DNA of 44,816 nt, taken from sequence record OZ035767.1; one strand, 5' to 3'. Position numbers and translations under genes: made by a program. Positions 1 through 44,816 of this stretch are shown one piece after another (the first letter of the stretch is position 1; each line of letters begins with the position of its first letter). This DNA comes from Veterinaerplatzvirus T145P1. The notes under the pieces are model-generated. The model was not told the origin of the DNA and searched no databases. It saw nothing but the letters and a program-made list of their open reading frames with translations.

Positions 1-29
1 ATAATCTGACCTCAACAAAGGAGGATTAA

Positions 30-7398: not shown

Positions 7399-7766
7399 AC
7401 TACAGCGAAATAGAATCAATCACTCGCGAAGGAATTAACTTCTTTAGTGATGCCAATGGCGTTTACGAGATGAGTACTGGCGCTGGATATGTTGAAATCG
7501 TTAACGGCGTTGAGGTTGAGTTTCCTTCGCAAACATTCCAGCTAAAGGGTTTGGTTCGAGAAATCAAGACTCGCGATATAGATGGTGAGTTTATCCATTT
7601 TGGCGATAAGCGCGGAATCTTCACAGCTCAGGTGGAAATTAAGCAGGGTTATCAGATTAAAGTTGATGGTGAGACTTTTGTTGTTGTTGATCCGCGACCA
7701 GTTAAACCAACTGGTACAGTGGTTGGTTACAGACCGATTCTTCGTAGGGTGGCTGCTTATGGCTAG
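7395..7766 (+). CDS. putative head-tail joining/closure protein
   Basis: Overlaps the stop of the upstream gene; synteny. Confidence 0.45.
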   Translation: MNYSEIESITREGINFFSDANGVYEMSTGAGYVEIVNGVEVEFPSQTFQLKGLVREIKTRDIDGEFIHFGDKRGIFTAQVEIKQGYQIKVDGETFVVVDPRPVKPTGTVVGYRPILRRVAAYG

Positions 7767-44248: not shown

Positions 44249-44457
44249 TTGTTAAAAATAGCTTGCATCACTGACCGGAATTATCTAATATTAACCACGT
44301 AGACAAACGAGCCATCCAAGATGGAACGGCGCACGGAGCGCAACTACTAAGTCCGTTGCTCATTAAGTAGCGTATGCGGCATTAAGACCTAGCGCAAATA
44401 GGCAGATTAATCAGCTGTATCAGGCAGCCCCGGAGCCGTAACCGGGACTCATTCAAG

Positions 44458-44534
44458 GCTCGAGTGGCGAAAGTGGATATCGCAAGAGACTTCTAATCTC
44501 TAGATTGCTGGTTCGAATCCAGCCTCGAGCGCCA
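44458..44534 (+). tRNA. tRNA-Arg (anticodon UCU), CCA encoded
   Basis: Hand-folded cloverleaf with all four stems fully Watson-Crick paired (7/4/5/5 bp); U8, A14, G18G19, U33; anticodon loop CUUCUAA; T-loop TTCGAAT; discriminator G then CCA. Confidence 0.9.
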
Positions 44535-44549
44535 ATCAAGGAGTTCATT

Positions 44550-44732
44550 ATGTGGGATGTGAAGTTGTCCATTCGCTTAATGGGCCGCTCGTGCAATAGC
44601 TGCACCCAAGATTATGTCGCGTCAGTTGCCGCAATCAGCGCTGAGGATGCGGTAGCGAAAGTAAAGGAGATGTCAGGCGCTGACCCTGACACTCACAAAT
44701 TCCTGGTAGCTTACGTTCGTGAGCGAAAGTAA
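44550..44732 (+). CDS. hypothetical protein
   Basis: Track ORF starts inside the tRNA; trimmed to ATG 44550 preceded by RBS AAGGAG. Confidence 0.4.
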   Translation: MWDVKLSIRLMGRSCNSCTQDYVASVAAISAEDAVAKVKEMSGADPDTHKFLVAYVRERK

Positions 44733-44775: not shown

Positions 44776-44801
44776 TTAGCCCTCGCTTGAGGGCTTTTTT
44801 T
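44776..44801 (+). terminator. rho-independent terminator
   Basis: AGCCCTC-GCTT-GAGGGCT then T7. Confidence 0.75.
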
Positions 44802-44816
44802 CGTCTGCAATATGGT

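Follow-up and report, generated by a model that had tools for sequence, protein, structure and literature searches.

A probable structured leader RNA next to the tRNA-Arg(UCU) gene of the T1-like phage Veterinaerplatzvirus T145P1

Described phage RNAs and the T145P1 locus

T4 species 1 and 2 RNAs (rnaC and rnaD) are stable, structured non-coding RNAs of 119–139 nt with no known function that are made from a tRNA precursor transcript and are separated by a 1-nt gap from the T4 tRNA-Arg gene. We describe here an element of Veterinaerplatzvirus T145P1 (sequence record OZ035767.1; the window is the whole stretch of 44,816 nt that was analyzed) that invites comparison with these RNAs, a 160-nt structured non-coding leader RNA predicted by comparative analysis at 44298–44457 (+ strand). 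In contrast to T4 rnaC and rnaD, which lie downstream of the tRNA, the T145P1 leader lies upstream of a tRNA-Arg(UCU) gene and ends at tRNA position -1. By visual inspection T4 rnaC ends in a T-arm-like GGTTCGAATCC hairpin that the leader does not have, and a covariance model built from 16 leaders (R1) scores at best 2–3 bits when run with filters off over T4 rnaC, rnaD, and the tRNA cluster. The leader and rnaC/rnaD (L213 1909–2172) share three 7–8-mers (GCCGUAA, AGUAGCGU, and CAACUACU) in a different order, probably by chance.

GOLLD and ROOL, structured non-coding RNAs of phages and prophages that have no known function and are often found beside tRNA genes, are several times larger than the leader (~600–800 nt) and have Rfam families, whereas the leader matches none. 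Lenient scans with Rfam 15 (E up to 10) of this region of the window, of the IME347 leader, and of the 293-nt AugustePiccard leader gave chance-level matches only, besides the tRNA; the Rfam scan that the first-pass annotation had recommended for the stretch upstream of the tRNA accordingly names no family even at E values up to 10. The C4 RNA of P1 and P7 and the CI RNA of P4 are small phage RNAs cut from an operon leader by RNase P, and they regulate that operon. These RNAs are themselves tRNA-like RNase P substrates and base-pair with downstream sites, whereas RNase P would act on the T145P1 transcript via a true tRNA and a duplex scan found no complementary target for the leader. HK022 putL and putR are promoter-proximal elements of two stem-loops that need no dedicated phage protein, in a phage that uses host RNA polymerase (PMC9378689). 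In the leader two hairpins, A and B, follow the predicted start in every lineage, a possible likeness to put at the level of description; both are shorter than put, for which a triplex and bulges have been described. The 5' module of the leader is ~45–50 nt rather than the ~70 of put, and some downstream T145P1 modules have promoter-like elements, terS an extended -10 of its own.

The leader is apparently undescribed, given that we find no account of it in the open-access literature on SU57, TLS, KanT1, or Drexlerviridae generally. Among coliphages and Klebsiella phages the T1-like group is classic and ubiquitous, with many members under study for therapy, and its transcriptional control is still little understood. 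These phages rely on host RNA polymerase alone, and for most modules of TLS a recent re-annotation was unable to assign promoters (PMC11447400). A family-wide structured RNA at a fixed promoter before the packaging genes is a testable regulatory candidate in this setting, and it occurs in easily engineered model phages such as T1 and BASEL Bas01–04.

Conservation, fold, and distribution of the leader

The first-pass annotation, made from the T145P1 sequence only, described the approximately 200 nt in front of the tRNA as unexplained and non-coding. Non-coding they are; they are however no passive spacer, comprising instead ~50 nt of promoter region and the 160-nt leader. A blastn search with the upstream stretch alone matches 88 phage records, mostly at 90–96% identity and in many at 93–96%, in which the stretch is unannotated. 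The leader is 98.8% identical to that of SU57 and 92.5% to that of PsgS01F; with SU57 as reference, a 60-amino acid (aa) open reading frame (ORF) downstream of the tRNA is 93.4% identical, the small terminase gene terS 89.1%, the tRNA 68.8%, and the ORF upstream of the promoter 35%. A position directly 5' of the tRNA and an unremarkable folding energy would suit a passive tRNA 5' leader or spacer that is conserved through recent common ancestry only. We find this reading barely credible, and refuted if the alignments are right, given that the leader is far better conserved than the tRNA, that it is present without a tRNA in T1 and most genera, and that its helices are kept by compensatory changes across genera whose terS proteins are <50% identical. 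The promoter, the conservation of the leader beyond that of the tRNA, and the presence of the leader in tRNA-less relatives had all escaped the first-pass annotation.

Covariation was assessed at two levels. In an alignment of the leaders of 16 relatives at the level of Braunvirinae, both partners vary in 10 of the 33 pairs that RNAalifold predicts. The structure as we define it has 97.8% canonical cells versus 20–43% when the 3' partners are slid by 1–3 columns, and its covariation score of 0.256 exceeds that of shuffles (0.107 ± 0.012; matched by 0 of 500); nine of its pairs, in hairpin A, helix C, hairpin F, and hairpin G, have changed on both sides. Family-wide, pairs were counted in 18 sequences from about 9 genera or subfamilies in a manual register (MAFFT misaligned the 5' module across subfamilies), and there every cell of hairpins A, B, and G is canonical, with 3–4 pair types at most positions. 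The stems of these three hairpins are wholly different in sequence between genera, yet always complementary. We are highly confident that the leader represents a functional structured RNA family that is independent of the tRNA.

A sigma-70-type promoter recognized by its conservation (44263–44291, + strand; -35 TTGCAT, 17-nt spacer, -10 TAATAT) precedes the leader, whose transcription is predicted to start at ~44298. A simple consensus scan missed this promoter because TTGCAT fits only three of the six -35 positions. Both hexamers and a spacer motif, CTGAyyGG, are conserved in relatives; family-wide the promoter has the form TTGAC(G/A)-N9-CTGAyTGG-TAnnAT, with the conserved RNA 5' end 6 nt later in all lineages. 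On the 5' side of the -35 hexamer is an A/T-rich element, TTGTTAAAAATAGC (44249–44262, + strand), which is possibly UP-like, is kept as TTGTTAAAAAGAGC in 14 of 16 Braunvirinae/Rogunavirinae relatives, and partially matches the genome-wide ATAGCAC..TTGnTAAAA repeat.

The leader begins with a conserved single-stranded 5' end, CGUAGACAAACGAG (44298–44311, + strand), of the family-wide form CGU(A/G/U)NACANAAGAG and always 6 nt past the -10 hexamer. Hairpin A (44312–44324, + strand; CCATC-CAA-GATGG, flanked by GAG and AAC(G)) is supported by covariation, with 77 of 77 cells canonical in the manual register, 3–4 pair types per position, and stems as diverse as CCAUC/GAUGG, GCCAC/GUGGC, CUAGC/GCUAG, ACCAC/GUGGU, GCGC/GCGC, GCUC/GAGC, CGGC/GCCG, and GCGG/CCGC. 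Hairpin B (44329–44341, + strand; GCGC-ACGGA-GCGC) is invariant within Braunvirinae and covaries family-wide only, where 83 of 83 cells are canonical and the stems include GUGAG/CUCAC, GCAUC/GAUGC, GCAGC/GCUGC, GUGAC/GUCAC, GUGGC/GCCAC, and GCCCC/GGGGC. Next, at 44351–44380 (+ strand), helix C pairs G[U]CCGU with AUGCGGC and encloses a small hairpin D (GCU..AGC); CCG/CGG of helix C is replaced by CCA/UGG in TR2 and ES. Hairpin E (44388–44402, + strand; CCTA-GCGCAAA-TAGG) is a predicted pairing only: of the 14 relatives in which it is present, 12 share one and the same stem, and its loop is variant in FP. Hairpin F (44414–44428, + strand; GCTG-TATCAGG-CAGC) covaries, GCUG/CAGC being replaced by GUCG/CGAC in 7 of 16 sequences, so that two pairs are altered on both sides.

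Hairpin G (44429–44446, + strand; CCCGG-AGCCGTAA-CCGGG, with a loop ending in CGUAA) also covaries. It is the hairpin that the first-pass annotation placed at about 44428–44447, and it is real: its stems (CCCGG/CCGGG, GCUGG/CCAGC, GCCGC/GCGGC, GGGGG/CCCCC, GCGGG/CCCGC) give 73 of 73 canonical cells in the manual register, and the 3' part of its loop, (C/U/G)(C/U)GUAA, is maintained across genera. The leader closes with a conserved single-stranded tail, ACUCAUUCAAG (44447–44457, + strand), which ends at the predicted RNase P site; in tRNA-less phages this CAUUCA/AAUUCA tail runs directly into the Shine-Dalgarno sequence. In tiwna, pSf-1, L199, and K50 a U-run of 4–7 follows the equivalent of hairpin G, forming a terminator- or attenuator-like structure before the first ORF (tiwna L183 381–442; pSf-1 L187 400–441; K50evo22 L181 ~590–630; L199).

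Several leaders are longer. Variable insertions of 4–130 nt lie just 3' of helix C (after 44381) in Rtp, the Piccard phages, OzMSK, FP, MM01, and ZL19, and the leaders of Rtp, the Piccard phages, OzMSK, and FP have extra hairpins at two fixed sites (window 44381 and 44407) that bring the total to as much as 293 nt (insertion loci L003 834–941, L004 834–991, L005, L013, and L014, with inserts up to ~130 nt). Hairpin-type insertions at fixed sites are as would be expected of a modular RNA. Examples of the added modules are GAGG-AUAAGGCGUAAA-CCUC and CCCUUAUGGG; some inserted loops repeat the GCGUAA-type motif of hairpin G, and longer Braunvirinae leaders carry two or three similar G(C/G)CG(U/C)AA loops.

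Several other likenesses and foldings were considered and rejected. The helix GCGGCAUUAA/UUAAUCAGCUGU of the single-sequence fold is unsupported in TR2 and ES, where hairpin F and helix C are supported. A pseudoknot of loop B with UCCGU or AAUCGG shows no compensatory change in DTL, TR2, ES, NBD2, or YSP2. The likeness to the RNase P P4 helix (AAGUCCG...CGGC) fails in that only a 14-nt hairpin lies inside the helix and RNase P models give no match; the boxA likeness of UGCUCAUUAA is not conserved in T1; GGA loops that would suit a CsrA sponge are not conserved outside Braunvirinae; and mimicry of a tRNA-Thr anticodon (CGU/UGU) is contradicted by a middle base of A or U in tiwna and L199, only U-A-A being constant.

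The conservation is of the RNA type. As the first-pass annotation noted, there is no convincing ORF upstream of the tRNA, with no + strand ORF of ≥20 aa between 44249 and 44505; the minus strand has three, of 20–31 aa. These minus-strand ORFs of 31, 20, and 24 aa, together with database coding sequences (CDSs) that cover the homologous region, are what can be said for a short peptide encoded on either strand. We regard such a peptide as the least tenable reading, given that the minus-strand ORFs are not conserved in T1 or other genera and have no Shine-Dalgarno sequence before them, and that the region varies by indels of 4–130 nt that are not multiples of three, plus paired substitutions. Annotated CDSs overlap the promoter or leader in TR2 (the "transcriptional repressor", L007 499–735), pSf-1 (gp57, L187 386–688), tiwna (gp15, L183 455–688), and K50evo22 (gp84, L181 496–645). 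Given the RNA-type conservation, these CDSs or their starts are probably mis-called; CDSs placed over the leader are doubtful, and database annotations may need correction.

An element that acts as DNA, such as an operator, a transcript-primed replication origin, or a packaging signal, might account for the conservation at the DNA level of the spacer motif CTGAyTGG and the first transcribed bases. The location beside terS invites a packaging role, and the replication origin of T1-like phages is unknown (PMC7718038). This class of explanation is nevertheless very improbable in our view: compensatory changes in at least four separate hairpins and the free variation of loop length point to a single-stranded fold, the leader is strictly oriented downstream of its promoter, and the annotated terminal repeat of T1 (1–2800) is ~5 kb from the T1 leader (7623–7743).

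R1 matches T1 at 7623–7743, in the gap between genes 58 and 57, with 27.9 bits (E 8e-8), and it also matches Phc (35 bits), IME347, LF82-10, YSP2, KMM3, and NBD2. Of 98 loci gathered by a 14-mer scan, whose matches were mostly due to chance, L018 alone proved a true homologue, and searches for related loci with single proteins gave close relatives only. T1 has no tRNA, and there a small ORF, with its Shine-Dalgarno sequence and start codon, follows the leader at once. A leader without a tRNA is likewise found in IME347 (Tunavirinae), Phc (Eclunavirus), YSP2 and KMM3 (Tlsvirus), tiwna (Warwickvirus), pSf-1 (Hanrivervirus), ESP2949-1 (Kyungwonvirus), Sin4 and K50-type phages (Webervirus-like), and several uncultivated contigs, whereas it is followed by tRNA-Ser(GCU) in NBD2, HazelMika, and LF82-10 (Vilniusvirus), by tRNA-Arg(CCU) in TR2 and ES, and by tRNA-Arg(UCU) in SU57, the Piccard phages, and MM01. 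Common to all lineages are the promoter, the leader 5' end, hairpin A, AAC(G), and hairpin B; nearly all also have the 3' hairpin G with a loop ending in (C/U)GUAA, then the tail CAUUCA. Given that T1, IME347, Phc, YSP2, and Sin4 have the leader and no tRNA, the leader is not there to serve the tRNA. Comparison of these genomes shows the leader as the constant element and the tRNA as swappable cargo between the leader tail and the Shine-Dalgarno sequence of the first ORF. No blastn match to the leader occurs in 5,426 E. coli genomes, and the pattern of promoter plus 5' module is absent from 185,579 species-representative genomes; by these searches the leader is not host-derived and is restricted to these virulent phages.

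The first-pass annotation had offered a tRNA leader, a degenerate second tRNA, or a small RNA for the upstream stretch. A structured leader or small RNA is favored by the data above, and the degenerate tRNA is unsupported by either ARAGORN or Rfam. That the stretch, or the 3' half of it, descends from a tRNA gene by decay or exaptation could be argued from T1, IME347, and NBD2, where one hairpin is D-arm-like (GGGGC-AUAGUGGUAA-GCCC) and is followed by a 5-bp stem whose loop ends in CCGUAA and resembles an anticodon loop with U36-A37-A38, and from the insertion of tRNAs right beside the leader. However, ARAGORN finds no second tRNA in the window or in ~30 loci, Rfam at E values up to 10 finds no tRNA or tRNA-like match in the leader, in which there is neither a T-arm nor an acceptor stem, and Braunvirinae, with UAUCAGG as the loop, lack the D-loop-like sequence. 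Strong purifying selection and compensatory changes are not expected of a pseudogene, so that this form of the idea is largely refuted and any descent from a tRNA gene is highly unlikely.

The transcription unit and possible modes of action

The window is a near-complete genome of a T1-like phage of Drexlerviridae (Braunvirinae) whose first gene is terS (small and large terminase genes at 30–536 and 554–2119). Its end joins its start exactly as in the relative SU57, and 44250–44534 therefore sits directly 5' of terS, in the last of several small + strand transcription units before that gene. This unit of ~520 nt consists, in order, of the promoter (44263–44291), the leader (44298–44457), the tRNA (44458–44534), the 60-aa ORF, and an intrinsic terminator (44778–44802), in accord with the general layout in relatives of promoter, leader, optional tRNA, one to three small ORFs, intrinsic terminator, and terS. 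The ORF (44550–44732; 44538–44732 with its Shine-Dalgarno sequence AAGGAG, + strand) encodes a protein with a CxxC motif that belongs to phrog_2919, of unknown function, and has homologues in 789 phage records (tblastn). The terminator (AGCCCTCGCTTGAGGGCT followed by T7, + strand) closes the unit and is annotated at the equivalent position in T1, MM01, and Sin4. An extended -10 promoter of terS, TGGTATAAT, has its first 4 nt at 44813–44816 (+ strand) and the rest at window 1–5 across the genome wrap; it is conserved, the T1 counterpart TGGTAAAAT lying at the same place (L136 8353–8361), directly 3' of the terminator of the leader unit.

We hypothesize that the leader is a released small RNA that binds protein. 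Transcription from the promoter at 44263–44291 would start at ~44298 and pass through the leader, tRNA, and 60-aa ORF to the terminator; an RNase P cut at 44457/44458 would mature the tRNA and simultaneously free a leader of ~160 nt that carries the GC-rich hairpin G close to its 3' end. For Warwickvirus and Hanrivervirus, the terminator that hairpin G forms may produce the corresponding 3' end instead, and the U-run after hairpin G in tiwna, pSf-1, K50, and L199 gives these phages the classic layout of promoter, small RNA, and terminator. The released leader would act as RNA, and a host or phage protein is its most likely binding partner. Candidate surfaces for such binding are the single-stranded 5' end, which does not vary, the internal loop GAG/AAC beneath hairpin A, and the loops of the CGUAA type; longer leaders have two or three similar loops, as if they offered several sites for one ligand. 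Simple control of translation in cis is unlikely given that tRNA insertion and the implied processing would sever the leader from the ORF, and it is unlikely to be the main job of an RNA that is largest and best conserved exactly in the tRNA-carrying phages.

A number of observations weigh against this hypothesis or the structure on which it builds. The start site, the release by RNase P, and the stability of the product are all predictions. In T1, IME347, Phc, YSP2, and Sin4 the leader is the 5' untranslated region (UTR) of a small ORF with no obvious route to a 3' end, and Sin4 retains only two hairpins (~60 nt). Neither a partner protein nor a base-pairing target was found, the duplex energies between the leader and the phage genome being no better than those of shuffled leaders by a crude method. 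Hairpins D and E show no covariation in the alignment of relatives, and the hand-made register behind the family-wide pair counts leans toward pairing. The single-sequence folding energy of the leader region is unexceptional (z = -1.0), so that the case for structure rests on comparison and not on thermodynamics. Taken as a whole, the explanation of the leader as a released, protein-binding small RNA is one that we put forward tentatively, as plausible rather than probable.

The chief competing explanation is that the nascent leader, with or without a factor, controls elongation or termination within its own unit, as an attenuator, a riboswitch, or an HK022 put-like antiterminator that carries polymerase past the terminator at 44778 and possibly past the late-region terminators. 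The leader invariably begins where a conserved promoter has its +1, and the core common to all lineages consists of two hairpins right after the start, just as putL consists of two stem-loops just downstream of PL (PMC9378689). Co-transcriptional action would survive both tRNA insertion and the RNase P cut, and put needs no tethering to the transcript (PMC9378689). In tiwna, pSf-1, L199, and K50 the 3' hairpin and U-run between leader and ORF are in the classic layout of an attenuator, and the loop of hairpin B in tiwna, GCGAUA, complements the 3' strand of the terminator, UAUCGC. The late region, moreover, has at least eight strong + strand intergenic terminators that an antiterminator could serve to pass. 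On the other hand, terS is served by a separate conserved extended -10 promoter just past the terminator and promoter-like repeats precede some other modules, so that read-through from the leader unit is not clearly required; a strong and apparently constitutive promoter would give no timing control of late genes. Most lineages lack a U-run after hairpin G, and candidate alternative pairings (loop B/UCCGU, loop B/AUCG, and AACGG/CCGU) show no covariation in the inspected sequences. No Rfam riboswitch or leader family matches, and the likeness to put is one of described architecture only. We consider a cis-acting co-transcriptional regulator possible though unlikely, and slightly favor the released small RNA over it.

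The leader could found a new class of promoter-proximal phage RNAs, spread across T1-like phages, that act on host machinery, a proposal that we regard as speculative and doubtful. If the emerging leader reprogrammes E. coli RNA polymerase, in the manner of put while unrelated to it in sequence, this would explain how phages without a polymerase transcribe a late region full of terminators. Alternatively, the leader might be a decoy whose CGUAA/UGUAA loops titrate a host tRNA-binding enzyme or a tRNA-cleaving defense nuclease, an idea that is based on the resemblance of these loops to anticodon loops for ANN codons (U36-A37-A38); the fast-swapping tRNA cargo would then be part of the same counter-defense module.

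The tRNA slot and dispersed genome elements

The tRNA itself is an ordinary phage tRNA, known in kind. ARAGORN reports one tRNA in the whole window, a tRNA-Arg with anticodon tct and an encoded CCA at 44458–44534 (+ strand), and the Rfam tRNA model RF00005 gives it 66.1 bits (gathering score 29, E 5e-14). The gene reads GCTCGAG-TG-GCGA-AAGTGGATA-TCGC-A-AGAGA-CTTCTAA-TCTCT-AGATT-GCTGG-TTCGAAT-CCAGC-CTCGAGC-G-CCA. The textbook cloverleaf of the first-pass annotation is upheld by both programs and by direct reading of the stems, which are all fully paired (GCTCGAG/CTCGAGC, GCGA/TCGC, AGAGA/TCTCT, and GCTGG/CCAGC), and the features that it listed (U8, G18G19, U33, T-loop TTCGAAT, UCU anticodon, CCA) are all in the sequence, together with A20, which is an identity element for arginyl-tRNA synthetase, and the discriminator G73.

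In a simple set of 63 ORFs (12,780 codons), AGA and AGG occur 10.3 and 6.8 times per 1000 codons and together make up 36.6% of the Arg codons of the phage, a share that is alike in structural and remaining genes. In E. coli they are the rarest Arg codons, at roughly 2 and 1 per 1000. Given this rarity, the usual codon-supply explanation fits the tRNA, and the codon count that had been suggested as a check agrees with the first-pass annotation. That such a tRNA supplies the decoding of AGA, a scarce codon in E. coli, was already put forward for the SU57 homologue (PMC7718038). For expression, processing, and charging with arginine, the conserved promoter upstream and this codon usage give indirect support only.

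Genes of the same class and anticodon are found in SU57, the BASEL Piccard phages, and MM01, and also in T4; those of SU57, Piccard, and MM01 also occupy the same slot upstream of terS, although the T145P1 allele is only 68.8% identical to that of most relatives. This figure applies to the SU57 tRNA and to the allele of close relatives at the same site (window 44458–44534 compared with L002 1710–1787 and L001 1732–1809), where both flanks are 93–99% identical. Relative to the common Braunvirinae allele, many changes in the acceptor, D, and anticodon stems are paired and compensatory. The T145P1 allele is seen only in T145P1, BEK2, and BEK3, the next best matches being tRNAs of Vibrio phages (~80%). 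Evidently the tRNA was exchanged as a cassette while the conserved sequences on either side stayed in place; escape from a tRNA-targeting host defense might be the cause. The slot in these phages is a cargo site attached to an older RNA element, a point of interest for the acquisition and exchange of tRNAs by phages.

Short direct repeats flank the tRNA gene (TCAAG...ATCAAG, 44453–44457 and 44535–44540). The tRNA-Ser genes of NBD2 and LF82-10 are flanked by AAUUC/AAUC and AUUCA/AUCA (L137 ~937–944 and 1033–1040; L139 ~943–950 and 1039–1046), and tRNA-less phages have a single copy of the repeat, CAUUCAAAGGAG. These repeats suggest tRNA insertion at one preferred site. PsgS01F, recorded as a Pseudomonas phage, has an annotated 99-nt "tRNA-Ile" after its tRNA-Arg (L001 1816–1914) that ARAGORN does not confirm, and several "Campylobacter phage" records (A110b, A127) hold the same Drexlerviridae module with 93% protein identity; the host labels of these records look doubtful.

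The late structural genes of T145P1 are separated by at least eight strong terminators, each a GC-rich hairpin followed by a T-run and all co-directional with the genes (+ strand; 2587, 6625, 6961, 9265, 10290, 13693, 15812, and 19277). A promoter-like repeat, ATAGCAC-N3-TTG(C/A/T)TAAA, has about 18 further copies in the genome where 2 are expected by chance, with 19-nt matches that start at 2116, 9293, 20594(-), 22881, 26459, 27518(-), 27997, 30493, 31534, 37005(-), 37792(-), 38973(-), 40539, 41549, 42076, 42586, and 43453; only two of these (2116 and 9293) are intergenic within the 20-kb late region. Phage TLS has this same element, reported there as a 21-nt direct repeat (PMC11447400). Its copies precede gene modules and are oriented with transcription, and most are followed by a TATAGT-like hexamer ~19 nt on and a CATCGAAACGAAA-type 5' UTR. 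The gap of ~22 nt from TTGCTA to TATAGT is too long for a plain sigma-70 -35/-10 pair, and a factor-dependent promoter class is therefore possible for this repeat.

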